This document shows positions 5,862 through 38,802 of a stretch of 64,000 bases of DNA, piece after piece. The notes beneath the pieces were generated by a model. That model had not been told where the DNA came from and did no database searches. It was given only the letters and a program-made list of their open reading frames with translations. A program made the position numbers and the translations under genes. The stretch is from Dehalococcoidia bacterium (GTDB lineage Bacteria > Chloroflexota > Dehalococcoidia > Dehalococcoidales > Fen-1064), in contig DUFD01000017.1 in assembly GCA_011171075.1 (NCBI GenBank), positions 1,777 through 65,776 of the forward strand. The letters run 5' to 3'. The first letter of the stretch is position 1. Every line of letters starts with the position of its first letter.

Positions 5862-6698
5862 ATGAGAAAATTCCTGGCGATATTTTTTGGTTTTCTGCTG
5901 GTGTTGACTCTGGTGACATGGTCTTGCGATGAAACGACACCCGTGGACGGGGAACAGGAAGAAGAGGAGGAAGTGGTAGAGGTTATCTTCACCGACCCAA
6001 ACCTTGACGCAGCTGTAAGAGAGGTTATTAGCAAGCCCATAGACGCCATCTTCGTTTCTGATCTCACAGAACTGACCTTTCTTGACGCGCAAGAAAGAGG
6101 CGTTACCGACCTCACTGGATTGGAATATTGTACTAACCTGACCATCCTATACCTTAGCGGGAACCAGATAAGCGACCTCTCACCACTGGCTTCACTCACC
6201 AACCTGAGCATGCTTGACCTTATCAGGAACCAGATAAGCGACCTCTCACCACTGGCTTCACTCACCAACCTGACTACCCTCTACCTTAACTGGAACCAGA
6301 TAAGTGATCCCTCACCGCTGGCTTCCCTCACGAGCCTAACCGATCTCTGGCTCTACGTAAACCAGATAAACGACATTTCATCATTGGCTTCATTGACCAA
6401 CCTGACCACTCTACACCTTAGCAGCAACCAGATAAGCGATATCTCACCACTGGCTTCACTTACCAACCTGACCACTCTCTACCTCACCAGCAACCAGATA
6501 AGCGATATCTCACCACTGGCTTCACTTACCAACCTGACCACTCTCTACCTCACCAGTAACCAGATAAGCGATATCTCACCACTGGCTTACCTTTCCAAAC
6601 TGATTGAGCTCTGGCTTTCAAATAATCCCCTGGATGAGATCGCAACAAATATACACGTCCCCCAGCTTGAAGAAAGAGGGGTAAAAGTTATTCGCTGA
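5862..6698 (+). CDS. leucine-rich repeat lipoprotein (internalin-like 22-aa LRRs)
   Basis: Signal peptide ending LVTWSC (lipobox-like). About eight 22-aa repeats NQISDxSPLASLTNLTxLxLxx. C-terminal cap NPLDEIATNIHVPQLEERGVKV. Confidence 0.85.
   Translation: MRKFLAIFFGFLLVLTLVTWSCDETTPVDGEQEEEEEVVEVIFTDPNLDAAVREVISKPIDAIFVSDLTELTFLDAQERGVTDLTGLEYCTNLTILYLSGNQISDLSPLASLTNLSMLDLIRNQISDLSPLASLTNLTTLYLNWNQISDPSPLASLTSLTDLWLYVNQINDISSLASLTNLTTLHLSSNQISDISPLASLTNLTTLYLTSNQISDISPLASLTNLTTLYLTSNQISDISPLAYLSKLIELWLSNNPLDEIATNIHVPQLEERGVKVIR
6425..6556 (+). repeat. perfect 66-bp tandem duplication (2 copies) inside the LRR gene
   Basis: 6425-6490 and 6491-6556 are identical on reading (caaccagataagcgatatctcaccactggcttcacttaccaacctgaccactctctacctcaccag). 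A third, diverged unit follows. Confidence 0.85.
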
Positions 6699-7878: not shown

Positions 7879-8745
7879 GTGATGCACCGGGTTATATTAT
7901 GCCTCTTAACGACAGCCATTTTTCTGATTTGTAGTACCTCTATAGCCTGTGACCCGCAAGAGATAACTTTTCCCGATTCAAAACTTGACTCAGCTATAAG
8001 GGAAGCAATCAATAAGCCCGAAGGTACCATACTTGTTTCTGACCTCAAAGAAATAACCTTTCTTAATGCGCAAGAAAGAGATATCACCGACCTCACCGGA
8101 TTGGAATATTGCACTAATCTTTCAGAACTCTGGCTTAACACAAACCAGATAAGCGATATTTCGCCACTGGCTTCACTGACCAGCCTGACTAAACTCGTGC
8201 TTGACGAGAACCAGATAAGCGACCTCTCTCCACTGGCTTCCCTTACCAATTTGACCGAACTCTGGCTTAATACGAACCAGATAAGCAATATCTCACCACT
8301 GGCTTCTCTAACCAACCTGACCAAGCTTGCCCTAGCCACGAACCAGATAAGCGACCTCTCGCCGCTGACTTCCCTCACCAATCTAACTAGCCTCAGGCTC
8401 AGCGAGAACCAGATAAGCGACACCTCGTTTCTGGTGTCCTTGACCAACCTGAGTGTGCTCAATCTAGCGATGAACCAGATAAGTGACCTCTCTCCACTGG
8501 CTTCTCTAACTAGCCTGACCAGACTCACACTTGATGGGAACCAGATAAACGACATCTCTCCACTGGCTTCGCTTACAAATTTGACCGGGCTCGCTCTCGC
8601 CACGAACCAGATAAACGACATCTCTCCACTGATTTTCCTCCCCAACCTGGGCGGTCTCTGGCTTAGAGATAATCCCCTGAATGAGACATCAGTAAATATC
8701 TATATTCCCCAGCTCCGTGAAAGAGGGGTTGAAGTTGTTGACTGA
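7879..8745 (+). CDS. leucine-rich repeat lipoprotein, paralog of 5862..6698
   Basis: Signal peptide ending STSIAC. Nine 22-aa LRRs. N-cap and C-cap are the same as in the first LRR protein (..NAQERDITDLTGLEYCTNL.. / NPLNETSVNIYIPQLRERGVEV). GTG 7879 or ATG 7882 start. Confidence 0.85.
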   Translation: MMHRVILCLLTTAIFLICSTSIACDPQEITFPDSKLDSAIREAINKPEGTILVSDLKEITFLNAQERDITDLTGLEYCTNLSELWLNTNQISDISPLASLTSLTKLVLDENQISDLSPLASLTNLTELWLNTNQISNISPLASLTNLTKLALATNQISDLSPLTSLTNLTSLRLSENQISDTSFLVSLTNLSVLNLAMNQISDLSPLASLTSLTRLTLDGNQINDISPLASLTNLTGLALATNQINDISPLIFLPNLGGLWLRDNPLNETSVNIYIPQLRERGVEVVD

Positions 8746-12764: not shown

Positions 12765-13946
12765 TCATATCCCCCTCTTCGGGAATATCACCACGACCAT
12801 TACCAGCGCCAGCGCCATGACCACCGAGGTCAGCATGAGACCGGTGCCCACACCCACCGCCTCCCCAACCCAGCCCATCACCGGGGCACCGATGGCTACC
12901 CCTGCAGTAAGCAGAGCATGAAAGATGCCAGTGGCCACACCTCGCTCATCAGGGTTGCTGTGGTCAGCGACCAGCGCCGAGATTGAAGGAAAAAGCAGCC
13001 CGTAGGCCAGGCCATAAACCACCATCATCACGGCTAACAGTGGGAACGTTGTCTGGGTCGGTAACAGCACCAGAGAAGCAATGCCGAGACACAAACCAGC
13101 GACTATCGGCAGCCGCCTCCCCTTCCTGTCAGATAAGGCCCCGCTCGGAAACTGGGAGATAATAAACACCCCGGAGAAAACAGTCAGAAGCATCCCCACA
13201 TGAAAAGCGTCCATGCCGACATCACTCACATAGACGGGCAGCAGCGTTACCACACCCCCGAAGCTGAAGTACTGGGCAAATGTTGAACCATAGGCAACTG
13301 CCAAACCCTTCCTTCTTATCAGGGCTTTCACCATGGGGAGGCCCCCGCCAGATGTTGTTGGTGAAACTTGAATCTCTTTCCTCGCTGCGGGCAGTAACAG
13401 GCTGAGGCCAGCACCACCGAGAAGCATTGCCGCCCCGAAGAAGAACAACCATTCAGGGCCCAGCCGGGAGAACATGACACCGCCAACCCCGAATCCCACA
13501 AGGTGGGCGGCCGCAATCGAGATGCCGTAGATGCTCATTGCCCTGCCCTCCCGCTCTGCGGTGGCATAGCCAGCAATCGCCGACATCGTGGCCGGACCGA
13601 CCACCGCTCCCGTTATTCCGTGAAATACCCTCACCAGCGCCAGGTGCAGGGGCAGGCGACATAGCGAATAAAAGACCATCGCCAGGGCATCACCCAGCAG
13701 CCCGAAGATTAAGGGGAGCTTGTGGCCTAACCGGTCAATCAGACGACCAAAGAGCACGTTGACCGGGGTATTGACTATCGAGTACAGGCCAACGATGAGC
13801 CCCGTTATCCCGACACCGGCGCCAAGCTCCTCTGCATACAGAGCTATTATCGGGACAAGCAAAGTGGTGTCAAGGAAACCAGTAAAGGTAACGGCAGATA
13901 TTACTGGCCATATACGGCGGGGCTGGCTAGTTTCTGTTGTAGCCAT
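12765..13946 (-). CDS. MFS transporter
   Basis: About 12 predicted TM segments and an MFS loop motif G.L.DR.GRR-like (GALSDRKGRRLP; GRLIDRLGHK). The start is uncertain (13946 vs 13991). Confidence 0.8.
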   Translation of the reverse strand: MATTETSQPRRIWPVISAVTFTGFLDTTLLVPIIALYAEELGAGVGITGLIVGLYSIVNTPVNVLFGRLIDRLGHKLPLIFGLLGDALAMVFYSLCRLPLHLALVRVFHGITGAVVGPATMSAIAGYATAEREGRAMSIYGISIAAAHLVGFGVGGVMFSRLGPEWLFFFGAAMLLGGAGLSLLLPAARKEIQVSPTTSGGGLPMVKALIRRKGLAVAYGSTFAQYFSFGGVVTLLPVYVSDVGMDAFHVGMLLTVFSGVFIISQFPSGALSDRKGRRLPIVAGLCLGIASLVLLPTQTTFPLLAVMMVVYGLAYGLLFPSISALVADHSNPDERGVATGIFHALLTAGVAIGAPVMGWVGEAVGVGTGLMLTSVVMALALVMVVVIFPKRGI

Positions 13947-14034
13947 AACACTCAAATGGTAGCAGGAAGCCCTCACCCATTCAAACGGCAAGTTGTTATG
14001 TTATAATGGGGAAACTCCGTGGAGGCCAATTTCC

Positions 14035-15171
14035 GTGACAAAGAAGAGCAAATCAAGTCTAGCCTATCGACGAATCGTGGCCAAGTTCGGCACCAGCCTT
14101 ATTACGGGCGGTACAAATCAGCTTGACCAGTCGGCCATGACAGGGCTGGTCGACCAGATAGCACGTCTTCACCAGCAGGGCAGCGAGCTACTGATAGTCT
14201 CATCCGGAGCCATTGCCGCTGGACGCCAGAAGCTGGGGCTGACCAGGAAGATTCGGGGTATCCCTTTCCGGCAGGTAATGGCCTCGGCGGGGCAGAGTCG
14301 CTTGATGAACATCTACGAGCAGCTTTTCGATAAACACGGTATCAGAGTGGCGCAGGCGTTGCTCACCAGACACGACCTCTCCGACCGCGCCGGATACCTG
14401 AACACCCGTAATACCCTGCTCGCTCTGCTGGAGCTCGGTGTTGTCCCGATTGTCAACGAGAACGACGTCGTTGCTGTCGACGAGATACAGGAGGCCAGCT
14501 TCGGCGATAACGATAACCTCTCGGCAATGGTGGCCAACTTAATTGATGCCGACCTGTTGCTGCTCCTGGGCGACATCGGGGGGCTCTACACCGCGGACCC
14601 GCATCGGCGTACGGATGCGCGCCTCATACCGCAGGTAGAGCGGATAGACAGGGAAATTGAGAGGCTGGCCTAGGGTACGGCCAGCGAGTCTGGCACGGGC
14701 GGCATGATAACCAAGATAGAGGCCGCCAGACTGGCGACTGCCTCAGGAGTAACTGTTGTTATCGCCGACGGCCGCGAGCCGGACGTAGTCATGAGATTGG
14801 CCGCCTGTGAGGCTATCGGTACCCGCTTTGTCACGAAGACCACCAGGCTGGAAAGTCGACAGCGCTGGATGCTGAGTGGGCTCTCCACCAGGGGAAAGCT
14901 GGTGGTGGACGCCGGGGCAGCCAACGCCCTCAGGAAGCAGAACCGCAGTCTCCTCGCCGCCGGTATCGAGCGCAGCGAGGGGCGCTTCCAGCGGGGGGAC
15001 ATCGTCGAAATCCATGACCCCGAGGGGGTGCGTATCGGCTGCGGCATTACCAACTACGGCTCGGCGGATATCGAGGTGCTCAAAGGAGCGCACTCCGGCA
15101 AGATTGCCGAGCTCCTCGGCCACGACTACGGCTCCGAGGTAGTCCATAAGAATAACCTGGTGGTTTTATAA
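14035..15171 (+). pseudogene. proB: glutamate 5-kinase ProB interrupted by one in-frame TAG (14671-14673)
   Basis: ORFs 13993..14673 and 14704..15171 are in the same frame. Reading through gives ..IERLA*GTASESGTGGMITKIEAA.., which is the conserved ProB GTGGM-TK motif, followed by a PUA domain. SD GGAGG lies 9 nt before GTG 14035. Confidence 0.85.
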
Positions 15172-15177
15172 GGGTAA

Positions 15178-15219
15178 CCCATCCCCCTGACCCCCTTCCC
15201 TTGATAAGAGGGAAGGGGG
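15178..15219. repeat. REP-like hairpin element, type 1 (copy E2)
   Basis: CCCATCCCCC flank, then CCCCCTTCCCT-TGATAAG-AGGGAAGGGGG (11-bp stem). A second hairpin AGAGAGG-TTTTCAC-CCTCTCT lies at 15231-15251. Confidence 0.6.
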
Positions 15220-15321
15220 AAGACTAGGTTAGAGAGGTTTTCACCCTCTCTACAACACTCCCGGCAGGACGATATTGTGAGGTGGCCTTTAGTGGAAGCA
15301 CCAACTCGAAAAGAAAGAGAA

Positions 15322-15984
15322 ATGGATAACATTATCGAACGCATGCGCATTAACTTGGAAAAAGCACATGTAAAAGGTATTCCAGAGTACATAAAACGAC
15401 TACATGATAATCGTAAAAGTGAGAAGTTTGAGGACTTCCATCTTGAGGGCAGGGCAGCCCTTATGTTCAGTCAAGCAGGTTTTGACGTGACCTTGCGGGA
15501 ATCTCCCGACTTAGCCCTCCAATTCAACAATAAACAACTCTATGCAGAAGTTACACACTTTAGAAAGAAGGAACAAGATAGACTCGACGATGCTAAGATG
15601 AGAGGGCTTGGTGACGAAGATGAATTAGTGCCATATGGCAATACGTATTCGCTCGAAGGTAAACACGCCTGGGAACAAGTTTATGAAGTAGCTATAAAGA
15701 AGATAAACCAATATAAAGAACACGCCCCTAATATGCTGGTCATTGAGAGTAGCAGTAGCTGTATCGAAGATACAGAAATACCTTCAGCAATTGATATGAT
15801 TAACGAAGATGTTAATTCCGGCAAATGCCCAGGACTTGCTAGACTAAATGGCATTCTGTTAATAACGGTAGATGAATTTAATATCCCTCAATGGCGAGAA
15901 GTATTTCCTTATTACACATGCAATCCTAGCGTCACGCTTAGCAAGGAACTTAAACATTTACTTGACAATATTCGTCTTAGCTAA
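15322..15984 (+). CDS. hypothetical protein in an AT-rich islet between proB and proA
   Basis: 220 aa starting MDNIIERM. Visibly lower GC than its neighbours. I recognise no family. There is a weak PD-(D/E)xK-like pattern (E..SPDLAL..LYAEVTHFRKK). Confidence 0.5.
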   Translation: MDNIIERMRINLEKAHVKGIPEYIKRLHDNRKSEKFEDFHLEGRAALMFSQAGFDVTLRESPDLALQFNNKQLYAEVTHFRKKEQDRLDDAKMRGLGDEDELVPYGNTYSLEGKHAWEQVYEVAIKKINQYKEHAPNMLVIESSSSCIEDTEIPSAIDMINEDVNSGKCPGLARLNGILLITVDEFNIPQWREVFPYYTCNPSVTLSKELKHLLDNIRLS

Positions 15985-16014
15985 CCAATAACCTATACGC
16001 AAAATGGGCAGTCA

Positions 16015-16124
16015 AAGAGGGGCGTAGCCCCTCTTACAAAAACCTATCCCCTTTTCCCCTTTTGGGGAGTCCAGAGGGGTGTAACCCCTCTTGGCGGGGG
16101 ATACCAAGGGGGTGTCCCCCTTGG
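16015..16124. repeat. array of GC-rich hairpins (REP-like type 2, plus a degenerate type 1)
   Basis: AAGAGGGGC-GTA-GCCCCTCTT (16015-16035). CCTATCCCC..CCCC-TTTT-GGGG (16043-16067). CCAGAGGGGT-GTA-ACCCCTCTTGG (16071-16094). CCAAGGGGG-TGT-CCCCCTTGG (16104-16124). Confidence 0.6.
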
Positions 16125-16204
16125 TAATACGGATGGGATTACATTTAGCCCCAATTCAATGTAGAATAGATAATAACTAACCCTGAACCAGAGGAGTAAT
16201 CAAC

Positions 16205-17479
16205 ATGGAGAAAGCAATCGATGAACTGCGGGCCAAAGGCAAGGTCGCCAGGGAGGCCTCGCGGCGGCTGGCCTACCTCTCCACCGAGGTAAAGAACCAG
16301 GCACTAAGCAACATCGCCGATGACCTGCTGGCCAAGAAAGACGAGATACTGGCCGCCAACCGGAAGGACTGCCAGGAGGCCAAGGCATCCGGTATGGGCG
16401 CCGCCATGCTCGACCGCCTTATGCTCGACGAAAGCAGGCTGAAAAGCATATCCGACGACGTACGAACGGTGGCAGGGCTCCCCGACCCGGTCGGCGAGGT
16501 GTTTGACATGCGCACCCTGCCCAACGGCATGCTTATCGGCCGCAAGCGGACACCCCTGGGCGTCATCGGTACCATGTACGAAAGCCGTCCCAACGTCACC
16601 ATCGATATCTCCGTCCTCTGCCTGAAGTCCGGAAACGCGGTTGTCCTCCGTGGCGGCAAGGAGGCAATCAACTCCAACTCTGCCCTGGCCGGGCTGGTGC
16701 AGGCAGCCATTGCGCGTGCCGGAATGCCCGAAGGCGCCGTGCAGTTCGTTGACAACACCGACCGCGCCCTCGTAAGCCACCTGCTCAAGATGAGCGACTA
16801 TATTGACCTGTTTATACCCCGCGGCGGTGCCGAGTTGATTACGTTTGTCAGGGAAAACGCCACCATGCCGGTCATCGGTGCCGGCGTCAGTGTCTGTCAT
16901 ACCTATGTCGACCGTACCGCTGATATAGAAAAGGCAGTGGCCATAACCTACAACGCCAAGGTGCAGCGTCCTTCCGTGTGCAACGCCCTGGACACCCTGC
17001 TGATTCACGCCGATATCGCCCAGAGCTGTCTCCCCCGGATAGCGTCCGAGTGGGCAAAGGCAGGGGTCGAGATGCACTGTGACGAAATGTCGATGGCTAT
17101 CCTGAAAGCAGACTCCTCCCTGAAACTGGCACCGGCTACCGAGGAAGACTGGGGCAAGGAATTCCTGGCACTGGTGGCAGCAGTAAAAGTGGTAGACTCG
17201 CTGGACGAAGCCCTGAAACACATCGAACTCTACAGCTCACAGGCCGACGAGGCTATTGTAACCGAAGACTACAGCTCTGCCATGCGCTTTCTTAATGAAG
17301 TGGACGCTGCCTCCGTATATGTAAACGCCAGCACCCGCTTCACCGATGGCGGGCAATTCGGGCTTGGGGCTGAGGTGGCTATCAGCACCCAGAAAATGCA
17401 CGCCCGTGGGCCACTAGGTCTGAAGGAATTAACGAGCTACAAGTGGATTATCTTCGGTGACGGGCACGTCCGACCCTAG
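16205..17479 (+). CDS. proA: glutamate-5-semialdehyde dehydrogenase (gamma-glutamyl phosphate reductase)
   Basis: Full-length ProA pattern (..[14 protein letters not shown].., ..[10 protein letters not shown].., ..[17 protein letters not shown]..), 424 aa. Confidence 0.95.
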
Positions 17480-18219
17480 AGCTCTGACTGCTTACCCCTT
17501 AAGGCATCGAGCGCTTCCTTTTGTATCTGGAACAACTCCCTGATGCCCTTTTCGGCCAGTTCGAGCAGGAAATCTATCGTCTCCTTATTGAAGGTTCGGC
17601 CTTCAGCCGTGCCCTGTACCTCGACGAACTCGCCCTGACTGGTCATCACCACGTTGAAATCGACCTCGGCATTGAAGTCCTCATCGTAACACAGGTCGAG
17701 GAGACGCTGTTGGTGCGCCACGCCAACACTGGTGGCCGCGACAGCGCACCGCAGTGGCAGTGATGGTATCATCCCCATGCCGGCGGCGGTCTCCAGCGCC
17801 TGGTGCAGAGCAACATAACCACCAGTGATAGCCGCCGTCCTGGTACCACCGTCAGCCTGGAGCACATCGCAGTCAATTATCAGGCTGCGTTCACCCAGCA
17901 CCGCCAAGTCTACCGCCGCTCTCATTGAGCGCCCGATAAGCCTCTGTATTTCCTGGCTCCGTCCGGCTATCCTGCCCACAGAGATATCACGGGCGGAACG
18001 TGTCAACGTTGCCCGCGGTAACATCGAATACTCGGCGGTAATCCAGCCGGTACCCGAACCTTTGAGAAAAGCCGGCACCCTGTCTTCAATAGTGGCGGAG
18101 CAGAGCACCCGTGTCTTTCCCTGCTCTATCAGCGCCGAGCCTTCGGCAAAACTCTGATACCCCGGTGTGATACGTACTGGCCTCAACTCGTCATAAGCAC
18201 GACCATCGGCCCTTTTCAC
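17476..18219 (-). CDS. rph: ribonuclease PH
   Basis: [19 protein letters not shown].., ..[11 protein letters not shown].., ..[19 protein letters not shown] prefer GTG 18219 (AAGGAG SD upstream) over the listed 18261. Confidence 0.9.
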
Positions 18220-18350
18220 GTGGCTCCTTCCTTCCTGCCAACTTCTGCCAAAGTATAACACTCACACATGGTGGTGGCAATCACTTATGCAGCTTTACGC
18301 TACTAGCGTGCCTCGATTTTCTAACTCACATACCCTTCTGGCAGTGGTGG

Positions 18351-18419
18351 CCCCATCCCCTTAGTTCCCTTCCCCAATGGGGAAGGGAAAGTTATGGTAC
18401 AAGGGGCTGCGCCCCTCTT
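18351..18419. repeat. REP-like composite element (type 1 + type 2 hairpins, copy E3)
   Basis: CCCCATCCCC flank. TTCCCTTCCCC-AAT-GGGGAAGGGAA (18365-18389, 11-bp stem). AAGGGGC-TGC-GCCCCTCTT (18401-18419). Confidence 0.6.
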
Positions 18420-18429
18420 TAACTCCTCT

Positions 18430-18804
18430 TCAGTCCTCACCTTGCTCAAGCTCCCTCAATCTGGTATCGCTTATCCCGAAATGATGGGCTATCTCGTGCC
18501 TGACCACCCGTCTCACCTCAGCCTCAATCTCATCCTCAGAACGGCAACGGGCTTCAATCGGCCCCTGGAATATGGTTATTTTATCCGGAAGAACCATCCC
18601 GTACCCACGACCACGCCGGGTCTGCGGCACACCTTCGTAGAGGCCGAGCAGGGTATACCCAGAACCCAGTCCTGCTTTTCGTCGCTGGCTGATAGTGGGA
18701 CGGTCCTCAACGACAATGTCCAGGTTGTGCATCTGCGACAGGAACTCCTCGGGCAACTCGTTGACCGCCCTGACCACCAGTTCCTGAAATCTCTCTCTAT
18801 CCAT
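18430..18804 (-). CDS. zincin-like metallopeptidase family protein (COG3824/DUF1025-like)
   Basis: 124 aa with HEIAHHFG near the C-terminus and an N-terminus typical of this small family (F..LV..A...LP..F). Confidence 0.65.
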   Translation of the reverse strand: MDRERFQELVVRAVNELPEEFLSQMHNLDIVVEDRPTISQRRKAGLGSGYTLLGLYEGVPQTRRGRGYGMVLPDKITIFQGPIEARCRSEDEIEAEVRRVVRHEIAHHFGISDTRLRELEQGED

Positions 18805-19006
18805 TAAGCCACCAGCTCACCAGCTATATACTACCACAGCACCAACGACTGTAATTCTAATGACCTAGTAAGATATGTCAACCTACCTATTTTCACATGG
18901 TCAAAACTTACCAGGAGATTTACCTCCTTCAGGTGATGCAGTACGGCGCTGACTAAGGTAACCTGTGGTGTTAATAGTACACTTAAAGGATGGAGGAGTA
19001 ATATTA

Positions 19007-19264
19007 ATGAGAACTCGAAAAAGTAACGGGAACCTGCTGACGACCAGCGAAGTAGCCCGTATGCTCCACATACACATCAACACGGCCAGAAGATGGAGCA
19101 ATCGTGGCTTTTTAAGATCTTGCCGCGTGGGACCCCGCCGCGACCGACGTTTCCATCGCGAAGACATCATGGAGATACTCACTGATATCAGGGGCGTGCC
19201 CGACAAAGAAGCATACAAAGAAACAGAGCGTAAAAAAACGCCTGTCCGGGCAGGCAGCAGTTAA
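19007..19264 (+). CDS. helix-turn-helix (excisionase/MerR-type HTH_17) DNA-binding protein
   Basis: LLTTSEVARMLHIHINTARRWSNRGFLRSCRVGPRRDRRFHREDI. GGAGGAG SD lies 8 nt before ATG 19007. Confidence 0.6.
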   Translation: MRTRKSNGNLLTTSEVARMLHIHINTARRWSNRGFLRSCRVGPRRDRRFHREDIMEILTDIRGVPDKEAYKETERKKTPVRAGSS

Positions 19265-19331
19265 ACCCCTCCATACCTGCTTCAATATTACCGGGGCCTA
19301 AACAGAAGCACGCTTCTCGCCCAAACCAGAC

Positions 19332-19369
19332 GAGGGTGTGGTAGTCCGACCTCCTGACGCCACACCCTC
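19332..19369. terminator. hairpin between convergent genes
   Basis: GAGGGTGTGG/CCACACCCTC form a 10-bp stem with an 18-nt loop. No U-tract. Confidence 0.3.
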
Positions 19370-19494
19370 ATGGTACTTCTGAAAAATTCGGCCAATAATC
19401 CCGGATTTCCAAAGGGATAGTATGTGTCTTGTCTCGCGTCCAGAGGCAAAGACGCACTGTGCTGGCCGTCCTGTCATACCAGAACGGCCATTTG

Positions 19495-22224
19495 CTAAGA
19501 CCCTGAGACATAGCCAATGGAGTAGCTGATAGCATCACTGGTGGTGATTTCACTACGAAATGACAGGATGATATAAACCAGATTCCAGATATCCATATCA
19601 GTTTGTATGTCTATCTGGGCTGAGGTATCACCTGTCGCCAGCAGCCCGCTTGCCCAGGTAATATAAAAGGTATCAACATCCACACCATCGGCAGTCATAC
19701 CGAGAGACTGGCCGTTCCAGACATCTTCAAGACTCTCAGCCTCAGTACCATCCCAGAGTTTCTGGCCGTTAAGAGCAATATAATCGCCATCGTAATAATC
19801 ATCGCCTTCGGTAACGAAACATGACATGGTTGCTGCATTGACCTCGCCTGTAATCGGTGCTGGTACCAGGAAACCACTCAGAAGACCCCCCTCCTCGCCG
19901 TCACCATCAAAGTCTAGATTTTCATCGTGATTACAGTAGAGGAAATTATCATAGAGGTACAACTGGTGCCCCTGAGTCTCGGGACTAGTGTAGATGATTA
20001 CCAATGACCACCCGGCATAAGCCCACTCGTCCTCAATATCGGCATCCACCCCACCCACAGTGTAGGTCCCGTTGCCCGGGTGTTTTCCACCATCACCCTC
20101 GGCAGAGTATTCCCGAACCAGTTCGGTGACGTCCTTGAAGCTAGCATAGGAATAGCCGTGAGGATTGCCATAGTGCATGTTGTCGATTACCTGCGATGAG
20201 TCTGCAACCAGCTCCCCGGCACCCTGCATGGGAGTCGCCCCATCAAGGTAGACCTGGACGCCATCTATCTTGAAAATAGCCGTAGTATCGGCGGCTGGCA
20301 GAGCACGTTCGTAGACAGCGATATCATCAAGGTAACAATATTCTCCACTGCCAGCAAAGCCGTAGAGGTAGAACCGTATTTTAAAGTCAGCTGTCAAATA
20401 CTCATCCGGAATGACCTCACTGAAATCAGCCGGCGGGTTATCATCTCTAAAAGCTTGATAACTACTACTCCAGGTACTACCACCATCGGCAGAGAAAGCG
20501 AAGTAGAGCCGGTCATCGGATTCCAACGACCCGTTTTCACGCTGCTCCCAGCCGACTGCCAGCTCTCCACTGGAGTAGCCGCTCAGGTCCAAGCTGGACT
20601 GCATAGTGAGATACCGGTCAGACTCACTACCAACGTGGTGCCCCTCGAACTCCCCGGAAGAAACACTCCAGTCAGCGCCGGCATCCCAGTTATTCAAGTT
20701 ATTGCAGGGGTCCAAAAAGGCATTAGACGTGGCGAAGATGGTCATATTGTCCAGGGAGCAATACTCTCCGATGTCAGCAAAGCCGTAAAGGTAGAACCGC
20801 AACTTGAAGTCCGCCGTCAGGTACATTGCCGGGATTGTATAGCTGAAGCTGGCCGGGGGATTGTCATCACGAAAGACCTCGATATTGCTGCTCCAGGTAT
20901 TACCACCGTCAGACGACAAAGAGAAATACAACCGGTCATCACTCTCCAGCCATCCACTCTCGTCCTGCTCCCAGGACAGGGTTACTTCATCACCGGCGTA
21001 GGCGCTCAGGTCCAGGCTGGTCTTCTTGGTGAGATACCGGTCAGACTCGCCGCCATTATGGTGCCCCCGGAATTCACCCGAGTCGACACTCCAGTCAGGC
21101 CCGGCGCCATTCCAATCAGACATGTTGGAGCAGTCTTCCTCCCACAATATCTGCCCGCTGGCAACGTCCTCATCGCCTCCCTCATACCAGCCTGACCAGT
21201 AGAGATAGGCAGCCGCCACCTGGGCATTTGCCGGGATATTAGAAATCGTCGCCGAGCTCTCGGCAAGCAGGGTATCCCGCTGGGGACCTCCCCAATCCCA
21301 ATTCAAATCCAGCATCAGGCTGTTTCCAATAGCACGGTAATCACCTGAAAACGCCGAGCCCAGTTTACGTATCTCGCTCTTTATGTTATAGGACTCGACC
21401 ATGGTGCCGTCGGCGACCGAGGTGATGTGGTAGACCCGGCTGTCAGCATCCCACGTATAAGAGACGCCTGTAACCCCGCTTGTTGTCACCCAGGACACGG
21501 TTGCAGGGTTAGTTCCTGGTTGGTGGGCGGTATACTGAAAAGTAATAGTACTCCTCTGCTCAGATATTCCGGCACCCACCCCCGGAAAATCAGTGAAGGG
21601 AGTTGAGTTAAAGTCCCAGATAACCGCCTCACCACCGGCATGAGGCTGAGTTATAGGAACACCGAAGCTACTTGAGTCAGTCACATAATGAAAGCCAGGT
21701 GATAACCAGATACCCACTATCTCAATTTTCAGGTCGTCCCCTGATTCCGGATAGAATATTATGTCTACCTGACAGGTAGATGCGTTGGGCGTGCTGCCGT
21801 ACGTAATCAGCCTGCCAGATTCAATAATATTCCTGGCCGTCATCTTATTAGGCACTGATATGCCAAATGGAATCCATACATGCTCCATAGATACATTGAC
21901 ATCCCTGGTATTAAGCTGTTCGGAGAGGTCATAGCTCCAGGTGGTGTTGTAATCATAGATATCATAGACAGGACTGGTCAACACAGACTCAAGGTCGCCA
22001 TATTTTATCTGCCACAGAGCATGTTCCAGGCCGCTATCGGCAGCATACGCCTCATGTGCCTTGCTCTCATACATTTGGCCAGCCTGAATACCCGTCATTG
22101 ATAACGATAAAAGAGGAGGCAGCAAGAGACCACTAACGAGCAGCAGCAGCAATACCAGCATAAGCACCTGGCCGCTCTCTGACTTCACCTGTTTCAGGAC
22201 ATTTTTAAAATAGTTGATGCTCAT
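19495..22224 (-). CDS. large pilus-associated surface protein (PilX-like N-terminus, duplicated beta-sandwich domains)
   Basis: Last gene of the pilus operon. The N-terminal hydrophobic anchor SESGQVLMLVLLLLLVSGLL resembles the PilX_N type and lacks the G/FxxxE prepilin site. It carries two tandem ~137-aa repeats and a C-terminal domain with AGWSLVIIY. Confidence 0.6.
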   Translation of the reverse strand: MSINYFKNVLKQVKSESGQVLMLVLLLLLVSGLLLPPLLSLSMTGIQAGQMYESKAHEAYAADSGLEHALWQIKYGDLESVLTSPVYDIYDYNTTWSYDLSEQLNTRDVNVSMEHVWIPFGISVPNKMTARNIIESGRLITYGSTPNASTCQVDIIFYPESGDDLKIEIVGIWLSPGFHYVTDSSSFGVPITQPHAGGEAVIWDFNSTPFTDFPGVGAGISEQRSTITFQYTAHQPGTNPATVSWVTTSGVTGVSYTWDADSRVYHITSVADGTMVESYNIKSEIRKLGSAFSGDYRAIGNSLMLDLNWDWGGPQRDTLLAESSATISNIPANAQVAAAYLYWSGWYEGGDEDVASGQILWEEDCSNMSDWNGAGPDWSVDSGEFRGHHNGGESDRYLTKKTSLDLSAYAGDEVTLSWEQDESGWLESDDRLYFSLSSDGGNTWSSNIEVFRDDNPPASFSYTIPAMYLTADFKLRFYLYGFADIGEYCSLDNMTIFATSNAFLDPCNNLNNWDAGADWSVSSGEFEGHHVGSESDRYLTMQSSLDLSGYSSGELAVGWEQRENGSLESDDRLYFAFSADGGSTWSSSYQAFRDDNPPADFSEVIPDEYLTADFKIRFYLYGFAGSGEYCYLDDIAVYERALPAADTTAIFKIDGVQVYLDGATPMQGAGELVADSSQVIDNMHYGNPHGYSYASFKDVTELVREYSAEGDGGKHPGNGTYTVGGVDADIEDEWAYAGWSLVIIYTSPETQGHQLYLYDNFLYCNHDENLDFDGDGEEGGLLSGFLVPAPITGEVNAATMSCFVTEGDDYYDGDYIALNGQKLWDGTEAESLEDVWNGQSLGMTADGVDVDTFYITWASGLLATGDTSAQIDIQTDMDIWNLVYIILSFRSEITTSDAISYSIGYVSGS
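20308..21144 (-). repeat. intragenic tandem duplication (2 x ~137 aa) within the 909-aa protein
   Basis: aa ~361-497 (C.NMSDWNGAGPDWSVDSGEFRGHH..ESDDRLYFSLSSDGGNTWSS..FRDDNPPA..YLTADFKLRFYLYGFA..EYC) versus aa ~503-639 (C.NLNNWDAGADWSVSSGEFEGHH..ESDDRLYFAFSADGGSTWSS..). Confidence 0.8.
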
Positions 22225-22239
22225 AGCTATCTTTGACCA

Positions 22240-22767
22240 CTAACTTGCTCTCGGGTCAACCGTGAACTGTTGACTTTCATTTATTACTCGTGAGCCCTGA
22301 CCCACGGTCACAGTTACCTCAAAGGACAGCTTATTCCCGTCATACGTACAGTTGGTCAGGGTTGGGTCAGCATTAATGCTCTCCGCTACCATGAGCGATA
22401 TCGGTGTGCCCCCATTGATAACGTGATTACGTATCAATTTGTCACCCACGAGAGAGTAAGTAATCTCATGCTGAGTATTATCCCATTCATCCCATGACAG
22501 CACCAGTGGCAGACCCGAGGCGCCGGAATCCACCTGTACCATTTGCGCCATCTTGGCATCGCGTCGTACCCAGTAGATGACATTGCGAACCTGTTTGGTA
22601 GCCACGGTATGGTCGCTATTCTGGGCGCTGGTAGTGAACACCTGAGAAATACTCATGACCACGCCACCACCAATGATACTGGCAATAGTAACGGCTATGA
22701 GCATCTCAGCCGCAGTGAAACCCTTCTGCCCTCTGAAAATCGCTTTTATCTTATTGGACATGGTCAC
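22240..22767 (-). CDS. prepilin-type N-terminal cleavage/methylation domain protein (minor pilin)
   Basis: Class III signal ..RGQKG|FTAAEMLIAVTIASIIGG, with Glu at +5. Confidence 0.75.
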   Translation of the reverse strand: MTMSNKIKAIFRGQKGFTAAEMLIAVTIASIIGGGVVMSISQVFTTSAQNSDHTVATKQVRNVIYWVRRDAKMAQMVQVDSGASGLPLVLSWDEWDNTQHEITYSLVGDKLIRNHVINGGTPISLMVAESINADPTLTNCTYDGNKLSFEVTVTVGQGSRVINESQQFTVDPRAS

Positions 22768-23150
22768 TTTGCCCGATAGGCCTCGATTTTAGTTGCTGTT
22801 ATATTATGATAAACAACAGAGACTGTTATTTTCTGAAGGCCGTCATCATCACCGGGCCCATCTCCCTCCAGGTCAAGTCGGACGGCATCATAGCTCACGC
22901 TGTAGCCACCAGGAATATCCGCAAGTAACAGATATTGTGGAGGGTCATTATCTATGTCATCATCATATGGCTGGCTCCGTATAAATTCTATCTGACCCTC
23001 CGCCAGATTCTGCGCGGTAGTCTGTACGTCATTGGTAATGGTAGCCCTGGAGGAAGTAGCCAGCGCACTGAGAATACCCGCAACAACTATGCCAATAAGT
23101 GCCAGCGACACCAGCACTTCAAGCATAGCGAACCCTGCCTGGTTCTTCAT
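22764..23150 (-). CDS. prepilin-type N-terminal cleavage/methylation domain protein (minor pilin)
   Basis: MKNQAG|FAMLEVLVSLALIGIVVAG. 4-nt overlap with the downstream pilin gene. Confidence 0.75.
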   Translation of the reverse strand: MKNQAGFAMLEVLVSLALIGIVVAGILSALATSSRATITNDVQTTAQNLAEGQIEFIRSQPYDDDIDNDPPQYLLLADIPGGYSVSYDAVRLDLEGDGPGDDDGLQKITVSVVYHNITATKIEAYRAK

Positions 23151-23204
23151 TATGCCCTTCTCCTGTATTAACGACTGATTAAATCAGGGCTTTTAGTCAG
23201 CAAA

Positions 23205-24677
23205 TCACCTGGTAATATCGATGAAGTAGTAAATTAATGAATCCTCTCCTGGAACTACAACCTCATCAATCTCAGCAATACGGGTCTCCACAAATGCCTC
23301 GGCTTCAAGAGCCCGTGCATAGCTCAAGACTGTAAAGGGATTATCCACAATACCCTCTATCATGATGCTATACCTGTCCATTTCGACCGCGGTGAAGGAG
23401 GCCTGTGATGGCAGAAGCCCTGTAACCAGTCCTAGATTGCCTGCGAAGTCACCTGCTCCGGCAAGCATCATCATATGTTCCTGTTGCAACGCCTGTAGAA
23501 CGGCAGCCATTTGGTTCACAAGTACCTCAGCATCGGCTTCGCCTGCGGCCGCCCGGCTGAGAGCGAGTTCAGCTAGATTCAGCTCGTGGGTTACCGTGTT
23601 TAACTCAGACTCCAGACGAGCTGTCTCGGCTACAGCATCATTCTTGAACTGGAAAAACGGAATTAATAGACCGGCAATGACTGCCAAGACACAATAAGGT
23701 ATCACATTTTTAAGCGATATATGGACATGCTTGGTTTGGTACGTTCCAGCCAGTATATTCAGCTGTGTATCATGGAAACCGTTAGTGGCCCTGATTTTCC
23801 GGAGAGCCAGGCCCATATTGGTTGCATAAAGAGCTACCGGTAATTCAGGCTGGAAGTGCAGAGGGGGGACTAGAGGCTTGACCGGATACTCCATCTCAGC
23901 CTGAATAAGCTCAGTGGTAGCACTGTTGGTCGCTAGCTGTCCCGTCAGCAGCAGTGGTGTATCAGCACTAAGCGGGTCTTCCGAATGACCGCTATTGTAG
24001 TACTTAACTGTCCTGGATAACTCATCAGTCAACTGTCGGACATGGTCGTGTATAGTCGCGCCTTCGGTCTTTGGGGTTACCGCATGCATTACCTCGGTAA
24101 TGCCATTGACTGATAAAACGATATCAAAGCACTCCGGCTCCATGGATACTACTATGGCATCGTTTTTGGCAGGTGCCCTGGCCAGAGCCAGAGGTTTCAG
24201 GTCCATTATATAGGGTTTTATACCAGCCCCAGTCAGTGTCTCCACCACAGCGGTAACAAGGTTGCGCGGCACGCCCAGAACGAAGAAATCGCTTTCATCG
24301 TCTCTTTGCGCAATAACCTGCCACGACAGGTACAGTTCGTCCACAGGTAGTGGCATCTCACGCTTCGCGGCACGCTTTATGGCCTCATCCAGAACCTCCG
24401 AGTCCACATGCGGCAAGCTCAGGATACGGTAGGTGAAGGATAGACCGGTCACGCTTACGATGACCCTCTTCTTGGGGATTCCCATTGTCTCGAAAAGGAG
24501 ATGAATGGCTTCGGCTACGGCATTCGGCTGCAAAATGAGACCGTCCCTGACCAATCCCGGGGCCAGAGGAGTGCTCCCCCATTTCTTCACCCGGCCACCT
24601 TTCATCGAAAATGCCCGGATATCACCAGCATTGATGTTCAGCGTGACATATGTTCGGCTAAAAAGTCCGTTAAGCAT
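23205..24677 (-). CDS. pilM: type IV pilus assembly protein PilM fused to a PilN-like TM/coiled-coil region
   Basis: Actin-like ATPase N-terminal ~300 aa, then a TM helix (VIPYCVLAVIAGLLIPFF), a coiled coil and a small C-terminal domain. Operon context. Confidence 0.65.
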   Translation of the reverse strand: MLNGLFSRTYVTLNINAGDIRAFSMKGGRVKKWGSTPLAPGLVRDGLILQPNAVAEAIHLLFETMGIPKKRVIVSVTGLSFTYRILSLPHVDSEVLDEAIKRAAKREMPLPVDELYLSWQVIAQRDDESDFFVLGVPRNLVTAVVETLTGAGIKPYIMDLKPLALARAPAKNDAIVVSMEPECFDIVLSVNGITEVMHAVTPKTEGATIHDHVRQLTDELSRTVKYYNSGHSEDPLSADTPLLLTGQLATNSATTELIQAEMEYPVKPLVPPLHFQPELPVALYATNMGLALRKIRATNGFHDTQLNILAGTYQTKHVHISLKNVIPYCVLAVIAGLLIPFFQFKNDAVAETARLESELNTVTHELNLAELALSRAAAGEADAEVLVNQMAAVLQALQQEHMMMLAGAGDFAGNLGLVTGLLPSQASFTAVEMDRYSIMIEGIVDNPFTVLSYARALEAEAFVETRIAEIDEVVVPGEDSLIYYFIDITR

Positions 24678-24688
24678 TATCTATCTCC

Positions 24689-25240
24689 TTACGGTTTGGC
24701 AAAGACGGCCACATCCAGGCTAGCCACAACTGGTGTAGACCCACCGGCATAGACCTCTTCACCATCTCCATAGTCCACATTAACAATCAAACTCTCGACA
24801 ATGAGGGTTTTAAAATCGCCACTTTCGAGACGGCTAACATAGTTTTTCACTGATGAGAATAATCCTGTAATATCTACATTAATTCGGAGGATGCTGTATG
24901 TATTCACGCCAATATGTACCTCCATCCACGGTTGGGTAATCAGTGGAATAGCCTTTACACCAATATCATCGGCCAGGCTAAGGATGGTATCAAGGACATC
25001 AGTACTATTAATCTCACCGGGTATCGTCACGCTCTCGGCGTCCAGAGCAGCCTGAATTACCACCAACTGCTCAGAGAAATATGTCGAAGGTTCCGGTAGC
25101 GCCTCCCGTGACTGGTTAATCTCTTCGATTTCCGATAGCAACCTCTCATGCTCCGGACCTTGCTTCATGTAGTCCATGGCCAGAAGACCATAAACTACCA
25201 GCAGGACAATGCCTATAAGTATAATAGCCAGCTTGTTCAT
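24689..25240 (-). CDS. PilO-like pilus assembly protein
   Basis: Architecture is a single N-terminal TM helix, a coiled coil and a small C-terminal domain. Position is between pilC and pilM. Confidence 0.45.
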   Translation of the reverse strand: MNKLAIILIGIVLLVVYGLLAMDYMKQGPEHERLLSEIEEINQSREALPEPSTYFSEQLVVIQAALDAESVTIPGEINSTDVLDTILSLADDIGVKAIPLITQPWMEVHIGVNTYSILRINVDITGLFSSVKNYVSRLESGDFKTLIVESLIVNVDYGDGEEVYAGGSTPVVASLDVAVFAKP

Positions 25241-25295
25241 TAAAACATCCCCTCTTTCTTATTTCTCGCAGACCTGTATTCGCTTCACAATACGG

Positions 25296-26507
25296 TCACC
25301 CCATAGTCCCCACAATGGAATACAATGGCCCGATGAAGGAAAGAGCAATGAAACCAACCAATAACCCAGAAAGCACCGTCATGGCAGGCTCTATCATCCT
25401 CACCAGACCAGCAATTCGCTGGTCAACAGCGTACTCATATCGGTCAGCAATATTGGCAACCATAGATTCCAAGTCACCGGTTTTCTCACCCACAGCCACC
25501 ATCTCAACCATCAGGCTGGGGAACAGCCCAATTTCTGCCATCGGGCGTGACAGACCCTGGCCCTGAACCAGTTTTTCCCTGAGTTCTACCAGAGCCTGAT
25601 GGACAACTCCGTTACCGATGGACGGAACCACGATATCCATTATCTCTGGCAGGTGAAGTCCGGCTTTCAGCAACATTGCCGTCGTATGGCAGAAGTGGTA
25701 CATGTTACGCTGCAGGACAATTGGGCCTATAACCGGCATTCTCAACAGGAATTTATCAAAGGCCAGTTTTCCTTCCGGAAACCTGAGGCAAGCAATACCC
25801 AGTCCGGCTAATGCAACCAGACCTACCAGAATGTGTATTTTATAGTCTGTCAGGAAATTTGAAACACCGATAAGTATTCTTGTCTGCAGAGGCAGAGTGG
25901 CATTAAGTGTCGAGAACATTTCCACCAGTGGTGGCAGAGCTACGGTAAGCAGTATGACGGATACCCCAATCCCCATCAAGCCCAGCAAAATAGGATACGC
26001 AAGCGCACCCTGTATCTTTTTCCTTGCAGCCGCCTGCTTGTCAATATATTCTGCTATATGCCTCAGCCCAGCCTCGAGGCTCCCCGACCGCTCGCTCGCC
26101 TTCATCACCTGGCAATAGGTGCGCGAAAATACCTGTGGATATTTACTTATCGCCACAGAGAAAGAACTGCCACCCCGAAGGTCATTTATCAGGTCAGCGA
26201 TGACCTTTTTGAAGGCGGAGTTTGTGTTCTGTTCCTGCAGTAGCTGCAGTGCGTTGAGGATATTTACACCGGATTCAATCAGGGTGGCCAATTCACGCGA
26301 AAAGTCAACAACGTCACCGCCCTTTATCCCGAAGAAGCTTGGCATCAGCTCTCGGATACTTTTTTGGGGACGCACTTCTGTCAGGCTGAGGATACGCTGA
26401 TACCCTGCCTGATACAGGGCGTCTTCAGCCATAGTTTCAGAAGTGCCGTCAATCGTACCTTTTACTGTCTTTCCATCCGCCGTATAAGCTGTATACTCGA
26501 ATATCAC
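25296..26507 (-). CDS. pilC: type II secretion system F family platform protein (PilC)
   Basis: Two GspF repeats and three TM segments, 403 aa. Typical motifs ..LSRPM..FP..MV..GE.TG.L. Confidence 0.9.
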   Translation of the reverse strand: MIFEYTAYTADGKTVKGTIDGTSETMAEDALYQAGYQRILSLTEVRPQKSIRELMPSFFGIKGGDVVDFSRELATLIESGVNILNALQLLQEQNTNSAFKKVIADLINDLRGGSSFSVAISKYPQVFSRTYCQVMKASERSGSLEAGLRHIAEYIDKQAAARKKIQGALAYPILLGLMGIGVSVILLTVALPPLVEMFSTLNATLPLQTRILIGVSNFLTDYKIHILVGLVALAGLGIACLRFPEGKLAFDKFLLRMPVIGPIVLQRNMYHFCHTTAMLLKAGLHLPEIMDIVVPSIGNGVVHQALVELREKLVQGQGLSRPMAEIGLFPSLMVEMVAVGEKTGDLESMVANIADRYEYAVDQRIAGLVRMIEPAMTVLSGLLVGFIALSFIGPLYSIVGTMG

Positions 26508-26534
26508 AATCTCCTCCCGGTTAGCTGCCTCGCG

Positions 26535-28241
26535 TCAGGAAATAGACAATACGCTGCGTAGCACTTCACTCGCCGTCGTGACGCCCTCTTTCACTTTCAG
26601 CATGCCGTCGCGCTGCATTGTTACCATTCCCTGTTTGATTGCCTCGGCCTTGATATCGTCAGCACTGACCTTGGTAAGCATCGCTCTTCGAATCTCCTCG
26701 TTCATCACCAGCATCTCAAAAAGGCCAGTCCGTCCGCGGTAGCCGGTATTGGCACACAGCTTGCAGCCGGTACCTCTGTAGAAGGCAGGCGTCTCATTCC
26801 CCATTTCAGCAGAGTAAATCACACGCTCGTCCATTGTCGGCTCAACCGTGGTACGGCAATAGGGACAAATCCGACGTACCATCCGCTGAGAAATCAGTCC
26901 GGCCAGTGTTGAGGTAATCAGATACGACTCGATACCCAGATCCATCAGCCGGAAGACCATGCTAATAGCATCGTTAGCATGAATCGAGGCAAGCACCAGA
27001 TGTCCGGTAAGAGCTGCCTGTACCGCCGTCGAGGCTGTATCTTTATCACGTATCTCGCCGACCAGAATGACATCAGGATCGTGTCGAACAATAGCCCGTA
27101 GACCGCTGGCGTAGGTAATGCCAGCCTTGAAATTAACCTGAGTCTGACTTATGTCCGGAAAACGGTATTCGATAGGGTCCTCAATAGTAAGGATGTTGTT
27201 GGCATCGCGGTCCAGTTCATTAATCGACGCGTAGAGGGTAGTCGTTTTACCCGAACCTGTAGGTCCACCCACCAGTATCATCCCGAAAGGACTCTTCAAC
27301 AGCGCTTTGTATTCCTTCAGAGTGTCCGAACGAAAACCAAGCTCGGAAAGAGTGAACAGGGAGAGTGACTTATCAAGAATTCGCAGGGTCACTCGCTCAC
27401 CATAGGCAGTAGCCATGGTAGCCGCCCGAATGTCAACATCCCGACTACCCACCTTGACCGAAAACTGGCCATCCTGGGGACGTCTCTGCTCCGCAATATT
27501 CATCTCGGCCAGGATTTTGATACGGGACAACAGGGGCACATGAGCATTCAGTGGCAGCGAGAACATCTCCTGCAAGATACCATCGATACGGTAGCGGACA
27601 CGCAGGTTCTTCTCATTCGGTTCCAGATGAACATCAGAAGCCCGGTCACGAACCGCCTGCTGTATCAGCAAATCCAAGCTTTGAGCAATCGGTGTCTTGG
27701 CAATTACTTTGGAAGTGATATCGACTTCTTCGTCTAGAGGCTTGGAAAACTGGCTGACCTGTTTCTCTATCTCACCACTGGACCTGTAATTAATGTCTAT
27801 CGCCCGCTCGATATCGGAAGGAACTCCCAGCGCCACCTCAATCCGCATTCCCGTCTGCGCTCTAATGTCGCGGATAGCCCGGATATCATCAGGGTAAGCC
27901 ATAACCACCGTCAGCGAATCATTAACCACCTCCAGCGGTATAAGCGTATATTTCCGTGCCATATCCTCCGGTATCATTCGCAACGAATCAGCTTGCACGA
28001 CATGTTTCTGCAGGTCAACCAGTGGTACATTAAGCTGGACGCCGTACACTGCAGCCACGTCTTCAGCCGTAACCACCCCTTGCTTCACCAGTATCTCACC
28101 GAGTTTACCACCCTTCTCCTGCTGAACCTGCAAGGCTTCTTTCAGTTGCTCGGGAGTTATCAGTTCCTCCTCAAGCAGCAACTGCCCGATGGGCTTATGC
28201 ATCATGTTCTCGGTAGAAGACTTCAATCTCTCAATAGCCAA
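26535..28241 (-). CDS. pilB: type IV pilus assembly ATPase (GspE/PilB family) with N-terminal MshEN/T2SSE_N domain
   Basis: Walker A GPTGSGKTTT, Asp box, Walker B ILVGEIRD, His box, and tetracysteine CPYC..C..C. Confidence 0.9.
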   Translation of the reverse strand: MAIERLKSSTENMMHKPIGQLLLEEELITPEQLKEALQVQQEKGGKLGEILVKQGVVTAEDVAAVYGVQLNVPLVDLQKHVVQADSLRMIPEDMARKYTLIPLEVVNDSLTVVMAYPDDIRAIRDIRAQTGMRIEVALGVPSDIERAIDINYRSSGEIEKQVSQFSKPLDEEVDITSKVIAKTPIAQSLDLLIQQAVRDRASDVHLEPNEKNLRVRYRIDGILQEMFSLPLNAHVPLLSRIKILAEMNIAEQRRPQDGQFSVKVGSRDVDIRAATMATAYGERVTLRILDKSLSLFTLSELGFRSDTLKEYKALLKSPFGMILVGGPTGSGKTTTLYASINELDRDANNILTIEDPIEYRFPDISQTQVNFKAGITYASGLRAIVRHDPDVILVGEIRDKDTASTAVQAALTGHLVLASIHANDAISMVFRLMDLGIESYLITSTLAGLISQRMVRRICPYCRTTVEPTMDERVIYSAEMGNETPAFYRGTGCKLCANTGYRGRTGLFEMLVMNEEIRRAMLTKVSADDIKAEAIKQGMVTMQRDGMLKVKEGVTTASEVLRSVLSIS

Positions 28242-28641
28242 TGTACTTCTCCAGTCTAGCGGACTCCACCTTTACAGGACTCAGTACCATGAGGCTATCA
28301 ACCACGTTGATAACCGTCGAAGGAGAGACCGGCTTAATAAGATAGTCATTAGCTCCAAGCTTAAATCCGGTCGCCATGTCCGCTTCTCGCGCTTTGTCAG
28401 AAAGCATTACTATCGGCAAGCTGTCACCCTCTGTCCTTAGTCTGTGGCAAACTTCAAAGCCATCCATTCCAGGAAGCATGACGCTCAATATAACAAGGTC
28501 AGGTCCTTCCGTCCTTGCTTTGTTCAATCCATCTGACCCATTGGATGCAATCAGTACCTCGTAGCCGTGTTGGGTCAGGGCATATTGCATCAGCTTCAAT
28601 GAAGCCGGGTCATCCTCAATCACCAGGACTTTCTTGTCCAT
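28231..28641 (-). CDS. stand-alone receiver-domain protein with Ser at the phospho-acceptor position
   Basis: KKVLVIEDD.., ..PDLVILSVMLPGMDG.. (Ser where the Asp is expected), ..IVMLSDK.., ..DYLIKPV. GGAGG SD lies 8 nt before ATG 28641. It overlaps the pilB start by 11 nt. Confidence 0.8.
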   Translation of the reverse strand: MDKKVLVIEDDPASLKLMQYALTQHGYEVLIASNGSDGLNKARTEGPDLVILSVMLPGMDGFEVCHRLRTEGDSLPIVMLSDKAREADMATGFKLGANDYLIKPVSPSTVINVVDSLMVLSPVKVESARLEKYIGY

Positions 28642-29124
28642 GTGTAAGACCTCCAACCTGAGCTACCACCAAAGCGGACCCCAGGTCCGATGCGGTAGCA
28701 CCGTAGCCTACAACAATCCGTCCAGTAGCCCGCCGTTTTGGCATATACTCTGAGGCTATCACCAACTTAGTTCATTCTTGCATCACGGTACTCTTACAAC
28801 AAGCCACTGGGGACCAAGTCTTCTGAACTACGCGGGCACACTTCGTGAGATATAGAGGCCATTGTCATGACCCCTCAGTGCCGTTCGGATGAATAGGCAG
28901 TCGGATAATATGACCCGATTGGACTTAAACAGGCTTTAACCTGTAACAAGATAGTATAGGGCGATACCAAATATCAGAATGGTGACATGATATTTAGTCC
29001 AGAGGGATTATGCGAGACAGGGGTCATTTCAAAGGTCTAGTTTAAGTGACAGCCAGAAAGAAAAGCAGCATTGCCGACTGTTATGAACGTATCGGAATGA
29101 TAAGCGGTAGTAATCTAATTGCTC

Positions 29125-36406: not shown

Positions 36407-36868
36407 ATGGAACAACAGGACCTGAGCAAAGTAGATGAGATTATTGACAAGTACGAGAGCAATAGTGAATCACTCATACAGATTCTGCTTGATGTCCAGA
36501 ACGAGTATCGCTGGCTCTCAAGACCAATCCTGTCCCAGGTATGTGAGCGACTGGACATACCCATGACCCACGCATATCATATAGCGACGTTCTACAAGCA
36601 TTTCAGCCTGCTACCGCAGGGTCGCCACCCGATATCGGTCTGCCTTGGCACAGCCTGTCATGTTCGCGGTGCAACGCGCCTGCTTGACCGCGTTGTCCAG
36701 GCAATCGGCATTGAGCCGGGACAGACAACACCTGATGAGAAGTTTACGCTGAACACGGTAAACTGCCTGGGGTGCTGCGCGCTGGGGCCAGCCCTGGTCG
36801 TTGACGGAGAATACCGCAGCAATCTGAACGCCAAGGAGCTCGCCGATATCGTCGCCAGTGCCGACTAA
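36407..36868 (+). CDS. NuoE/HymA-like thioredoxin-like [2Fe-2S] subunit
   Basis: Complex I 24-kDa family pattern (..SLIQILLDVQ.., C..AC....., NCLGCCALGPA). Confidence 0.85.
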   Translation: MEQQDLSKVDEIIDKYESNSESLIQILLDVQNEYRWLSRPILSQVCERLDIPMTHAYHIATFYKHFSLLPQGRHPISVCLGTACHVRGATRLLDRVVQAIGIEPGQTTPDEKFTLNTVNCLGCCALGPALVVDGEYRSNLNAKELADIVASAD

Positions 36869-36886
36869 CCGGAGAAGGAGAATAGC

Positions 36887-38791: not shown

Positions 38792-38802
38792 GGAGGCGAA
38801 CA

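Follow-up and report, generated by a model that had tools for sequence, protein, structure and literature searches.

A probable recent nonsense mutation in the glutamate 5-kinase gene of a nearly clonal Dehalococcoidia population

The glutamate 5-kinase gene (proB) of an uncultured Dehalococcoidia/Dehalococcoidales bacterium is interrupted by a single amber codon, which most likely arose through a very recent single-nucleotide nonsense mutation, C to A at position 14672, in one subpopulation. Positions are those of the window, the whole 64,000-nucleotide stretch of DNA that was analyzed, which lies in a 74,554-bp contig of an NCBI third-party (TPA) MAG named 'Dehalococcoidia bacterium'. The change would have converted a TCG codon (Ser213) to TAG, and the resulting allele would be a newly arisen loss-of-function form of this kinase gene that is either turning into a pseudogene or being tolerated through proline from the environment. 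The polymorphism is a single nucleotide, its direction is from sense codon to stop, it is unique to this allele and it is present in two assembly records. Nascent pseudogenes created by a nonsense mutation in a biosynthetic gene are the usual route to auxotrophy in uncultured and streamlined bacteria. The allele described here is of this kind, a commonplace nonsense polymorphism in which conversion to a pseudogene has only just begun.

The proB gene extends from 14035 to 15171 and codon 213 is its sole interruption (Table 1). Two open reading frames, 13993/14035..14673 and 14704..15171, share a frame and have the in-frame TAG between them. When read through TAG, the gene encodes 378 amino acids, and the 377 other positions are identical to two intact proteins, P0001 from ENA and P0002 from JGI, both of which carry Ser213 where the window has its stop; the junction reads ...IERLA-X-GTASESGTGGMITK. 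The part upstream of TAG equals residues 1-212 of P0001 and matches Pfam AA_kinase (E 2e-39, profile positions 2-196 of 234), while the part downstream equals residues 214-378, matches Pfam PUA (E 1e-18) and aligns to residues 204-365 of E. coli glutamate 5-kinase. Comparison of the read-through product with P0001 and P0002 revealed no second lesion. The original prediction, made from the letters of the DNA alone, that a single in-frame TAG splits an otherwise intact proB just before the GTGGM motif is borne out by these identities and by the alignment to the E. coli enzyme. Its statement that proA downstream is intact also holds, as proA scores 600 bits against NCBIfam NF001221 (cutoff 289).

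With serine at codon 213, ProB scores 434 bits against the NCBIfam proB equivalog TIGR01027 (cutoff 186) over positions 1-362 of 363, and the Ser213 allele is a full-length member of the family with both AA_kinase and PUA domains. The window allele lacks a frame that runs uninterrupted through the GTGGM loop and the kinase C-lobe because TAG falls at codon 213, six residues before GTGGM, and what the window holds is therefore a genuine proB in disrupted form. NCBI has records for both flanking genes but for neither proB fragment, an absence that would fit annotation of the gene as a pseudogene.

Table 1. Features of the window around proB and elsewhere
Feature	Position	Strand	Description
Two leucine-rich-repeat (LRR_4) proteins	5862-6698, 7879-8745	+	
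proB 5' part	14035..14670	+	Codons 1-212; GTG start (probable, 14035); most of the amino-acid-kinase domain
Predicted 7-bp hairpin GCUGGCC/GGCCAGC	14664..14685	+	TAG in 8-nt loop; not conserved
Amber codon TAG	14671..14673	+	Codon 213; derived base A at 14672; ancestral codon TCG (Ser)
proB 3' part	14674..15171	+	Codons 214-378 and TAA stop; GTGGM loop, remaining kinase C-lobe, PUA
Hairpin GCCAG-CGAGT-CTGGC	14681..14695	+	Competes with the 7-bp stem for GCCAG; not conserved
orf230	15292..15984	+	230-aa ORF between proB and proA; hypothetical protein HEY40827.1
proA	16205..17479	+	Glutamate-5-semialdehyde dehydrogenase; intact, terminates on TAG; identical to HEY40828.1
Type IV pilus or type II secretion-like cluster	19495-28656	-	T2SSE ATPase, T2SSF, PilM-like
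676-aa protein	44271-46301	+	Methylenetetrahydrofolate reductase domain and MTHFR C-terminal domain DUF5981

The read-through product aligns over its whole length with E. coli glutamate 5-kinase (PDB 2j5t, 2j5v; E 5e-87), and the two proteins have in common the kinase plus PUA architecture and the GTGGM-x-TK motif. Codon 213 is aligned to Gly203 of the E. coli enzyme (2j5t). The window allele, in contrast to that enzyme, stops at the equivalent of residue 203, about 50 residues before the end of 2w21, the shortest solved chain of the E. coli enzyme that was found (a PUA-less form, residues 6-255). Translation would halt after residue 212 and leave a truncated ProB without the GTGGM phosphate-binding loop, the conserved lysine that follows it, the rest of the nucleotide-binding lobe and the PUA domain. 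Because these elements are lost, the truncated protein should be inactive, and the TAG allele is most probably null or very leaky. Bacteria that carry it would probably need proline or peptides from outside the cell. The usual low rate of UAG misreading would be expected to supply at most a trace of full-length enzyme, which would be active since relatives accept Lys, Tyr, His and others at position 213.

The intact form of the gene occurs in assemblies that are otherwise nearly identical to the window. P0001 is encoded by an 8,250-bp ENA contig (ERZ27275860, k141_1849701; L001) that aligns over its full length to positions 12849-21098 with one mismatch in 8,250 bp. This mismatch is position 14672, where the window has A and L001 has C, giving TAG and TCG (Ser213), respectively. 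A second contig from the same sample (L165) matches the window at every one of 4,104 bases, so that the two contigs together differ from the window at one base, 14672, in 12,354 bp. The Logan contigs of SRR6208352 show no difference from the window over 2,833 bases, and a JGI contig (3300027901; L164) departs from it only in the repeat of a leucine-rich-repeat (LRR) gene and at a single other base; apart from that base, the differences in L164 lie within the misaligned repeat and thus provide no transition/transversion baseline. The population is almost clonal across the ENA, JGI and Logan data sets, and the stop is among its very few differences. A search for the exact 30-nt pattern around codon 213, with N at 14672, gave no match in metagenome and genome contig collections without this strain.

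The original prediction had proposed that orthologous proB genes be compared at this codon, and the comparison gave TCG in the sister lineage as well as in the clone-mate. The sister lineage (P0003, 92% amino acid identity) carries TCG at codon 213 in two separate assemblies (L167 and L168), which makes TAG the derived state. The close relatives listed all have serine at position 213 with the exception of P0013, which has arginine. Among 160 Dehalococcoidales loci (62-86% amino acid identity), there is no stop at codon 213 or elsewhere in the aligned proB, and residue 213 is variable (Ala 106, Thr 18, Ser 14, Gly 8, Lys 4, Val 4, Arg 2 and Met 2, with Asn, His and Tyr also found). Based on the codons of the sister lineage and close relatives and on the variability of the residue in these 160 intact loci, TAG is derived, the result of a C-to-A transversion in a serine codon whose position tolerates substitution and is non-catalytic. 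The original prediction had linked plain decay of the gene to additional proB lesions in relatives. All relatives are intact, which points to a fresh lesion and not to long-term decay. An old decaying pseudogene was rejected as a candidate, given the single lesion, the identity of the 377 other residues and the intact relatives.

A very recent nonsense mutation, a sequencing or assembly error, and site-specific readthrough or recoding had been put forward without ranking. The first is supported by the one-base difference from the near-clonal TCG assembly, by TCG in the sister lineage and by the lack of a stop in any relative, whereas a pure assembly error is less likely and site-specific recoding is unsupported because neither the stop nor the hairpins are conserved, codon 213 encodes a variable residue and more genes end on TAG than on any other stop. 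The window allele resembles ordinary nonsense (amber) polymorphisms and nascent pseudogenes in that a one-base change turns sense to stop with no further lesions, the clone-mates and all relatives are intact, and the neighboring pathway gene, proA, is intact as well. It is of the same kind as these, and stands out only for its recency, being the sole difference in 12.35 kb. A consensus nonsense codon in a core biosynthetic gene is nevertheless somewhat unexpected under purifying selection unless proline is supplied, and the base at 14672 is seen here at the level of assembled contigs.

The main rival to a recent mutation, which we consider unlikely though well short of negligible, is that the A at 14672 is a library or amplification artifact or a consensus error of one sequencing run and that the true gene is the TCG allele. 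Such an A could result from oxidative damage (C>A) or from an early PCR or MDA error spread via duplicates. C>A is the typical 8-oxoguanine artifact, and GGC-rich inverted repeats, in which the site lies, are associated with Illumina sequence-specific errors. That 14672 is the one position to differ from a near-clonal assembly, in a population otherwise almost invariant across records, is also what an artifact would produce. The change creates a CTAG and the window's sole CCTAGG. CTAG is scarce in the window, with 63 occurrences against 248 predicted from base composition, a roughly four-fold deficit; a new CTAG or CCTAGG would be expected from a fresh mutation and from an artifact alike. The TAG allele is found not only in the MAG but also in a 3,195-bp ENA contig (ERZ27275891, k141_4116596; L002) that is 100% identical to window positions 12897-16091, and the exact 212-aa and 155-aa proB fragments are on record from ERZ27275891, where the 212-aa gene was called for the 5' part. 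An assembler-specific error is unlikely given this second record. Two different assemblies, the 74.5-kb MAG contig and a MEGAHIT k141 contig, thus call A, and both contigs run through the site unbroken. For an assembler to call a base, several reads must agree, and errors that are random or tied to a motif would rarely reach a majority. Two assemblies with A and a sibling sample with a clean TCG are consistent with an allele whose frequency truly varies from sample to sample. One sequencing run may, however, underlie both the MAG and ERZ27275891; the allele does not depend on the assembler, but its independence at the level of sequencing does not follow.

Translation of UAG, by tRNA-Pyl and PylRS or by an amber suppressor, would yield a full-length active ProB from the same sequence. 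Some Chloroflexi and 'Dehalococcoides'-lineage bacteria encode pyrrolysine machinery (Mukai et al., PMC5424206), proB has no further lesions, and insertion of an amino acid at position 213 would probably be tolerated since relatives have Lys, Arg, Tyr, His, Met and small residues there. We nonetheless regard translation of UAG as very improbable. The 64-kb window has no tRNA genes and no Rfam matches, and Pfam scans of its approximately 48 ORFs detected no pyl genes or methylamine methyltransferases. Stop codon usage in the 48 window genes checked (TAG 23, TGA 15, TAA 10) agrees with the original view that TAG is an ordinary stop elsewhere and that genome-wide reassignment is unlikely; constitutive suppression would extend roughly half of the proteins, and several TAG-ended genes stop exactly at the end of their family profile, for example YchF (84 of 84). 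The scarcity of CTAG in the window coexists with TAG as the most used stop. Other long ORFs that share a frame across a TAG (at 55448, 47227 and 22240) are two alpha/beta hydrolases, YchF and TauE, and a pilin-like protein and a 909-aa protein, and each pair was found to be separate complete genes, so that no further window gene is split by an in-frame TAG. Both genome-wide reassignment and further split genes were rejected on these grounds. The pyrrolysine codons of mtmB, mtbB and mttB in Pyl-using archaea and bacteria, among them some Chloroflexi (PMC5424206), are likewise in-frame UAG codons in an intact enzyme gene. In contrast to the window codon, these are conserved at a catalytic position across orthologues and co-occur with pylTSBCD. 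Codon 213 of proB is TCG in the clone-mate and the sister lineage, is a stop in 0 of 160 relatives' loci, and encodes a variable residue outside the motif. Even given a suppressor, TAG would be an accidental mutation here and not a programmed site. It is similarly a long shot that the genome may hold a UAG-decoding tRNA (e.g. Pyl) and that the amber allele is then partly or conditionally read through; if true, an expanded genetic code would here be shielding a housekeeping gene from a nonsense mutation in nature.

A programmed readthrough signal was rejected as well. The hairpin GCCAG-CGAGU-CUGGC that had been pointed out just downstream of TAG is present, but the minimum-energy fold uses its GCCAG in another stem, a 7-bp stem that pairs 14664-14670 with 14679-14685. 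The minimum-energy fold of 14655-14735 is only modestly better than those of shuffled sequences (z -2.3; 4 of 200 shuffles do equally well). In the sister lineage both stems have lost pairing with no compensating substitution, the 7-bp stem in L167 and L168 (GCTGGCG ... GGCTAAC) and the downstream hairpin as GCTAA-CGAGT-CCGGC. The same sequence surrounds the sense (TCG) allele in L001.

Least credible of all is a split enzyme, in which ribosomes would terminate at TAG and resume at ATG 14704, yielding pieces of 212 and 155 aa that associate to give a functional kinase. This ATG is the first in the 3' part, lies within GTGGM and is in frame 31 nt past TAG, and both fragments were predicted by a gene caller. 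A working split enzyme is unlikely since a restart at 14704 would drop residues 213-222, including the Gly-rich GTGG loop, and since no clear Shine-Dalgarno sequence precedes ATG 14704, where the sequence is GGCACGGGCGGC. A split proB occurs in 0 of 160 relatives' loci, and an arrangement that is one mutation old cannot have been selected.

We favor a recent nonsense mutation, and the MAG annotation should mark proB as a nonsense allele due to one SNP, whether pseudogene or possible error. A label of two genes, or of recoding, would be inappropriate. The finding matters little beyond annotation. If the variant is real, it is a small, clean case of loss of function that is dominant in one sample and absent from another within a nearly clonal sediment population, and it is relevant to the origin of auxotrophies in uncultured Dehalococcoidia. 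It would gain interest only if the genome encodes an amber-decoding tRNA.

Other features of the window were recorded during the analysis. The spacer between proB and proA (15172-16204) is 1,033 bp long and contains orf230. In Dehalococcoidales relatives the same spacer ranges from 16 to 2,702 bp with varying small genes, and it looks like a hotspot for gene insertion within the proBA pair. Homologues of orf230 are found downstream of proB in only 4 of the relatives' loci (L014, L017, L035 and L096), and orf230 itself has no match in Pfam, NCBIfam or PADLOC. Short G+C-rich hairpins are dense at 15180-15225 and 16010-16130. One just 3' of proB has the form CCCTTCCC-TTGATAAGA-GGGAAGGG, a motif that occurs once only in the window, and those before proA include AGAGGGGCGTAGCCCCTCT, CCCCTTTTGGGG and AGAGGGGTGTAACCCCTCT. 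L002 and L003, which are contigs of other assemblies, terminate alike at approximately 16081-16091, and L003 starts at 15174; given these contig ends, the G+C-rich hairpins may break assemblies.

The differences between L164 and the window fall in the repeat of the first LRR protein (6200-6533), where they are either many mismatches or a shifted repeat register, and at base 6700. They suggest that strains of this otherwise clonal population differ in the repeats of a protein with a surface or interaction role. The pilus or secretion-like cluster also includes a protein with an N-terminal methylation motif and a response regulator. Two ORFs in this cluster, of 909 aa (19495-22224) and 183 aa (24689-25240), have no family match, and the 909-aa ORF, like a 137-aa ORF and orf230, has no NCBIfam match above the curated cutoff and no PADLOC match. 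The 676-aa protein has at its N-terminus a weak match, below the Pfam cutoff, to a response-regulator receiver, and is encoded near NuoE-like, Nuo51-like and 2Fe-2S subunits (36407-39624). Together with these Nuo-like subunits, it could form an electron-bifurcating MTHFR-type module.
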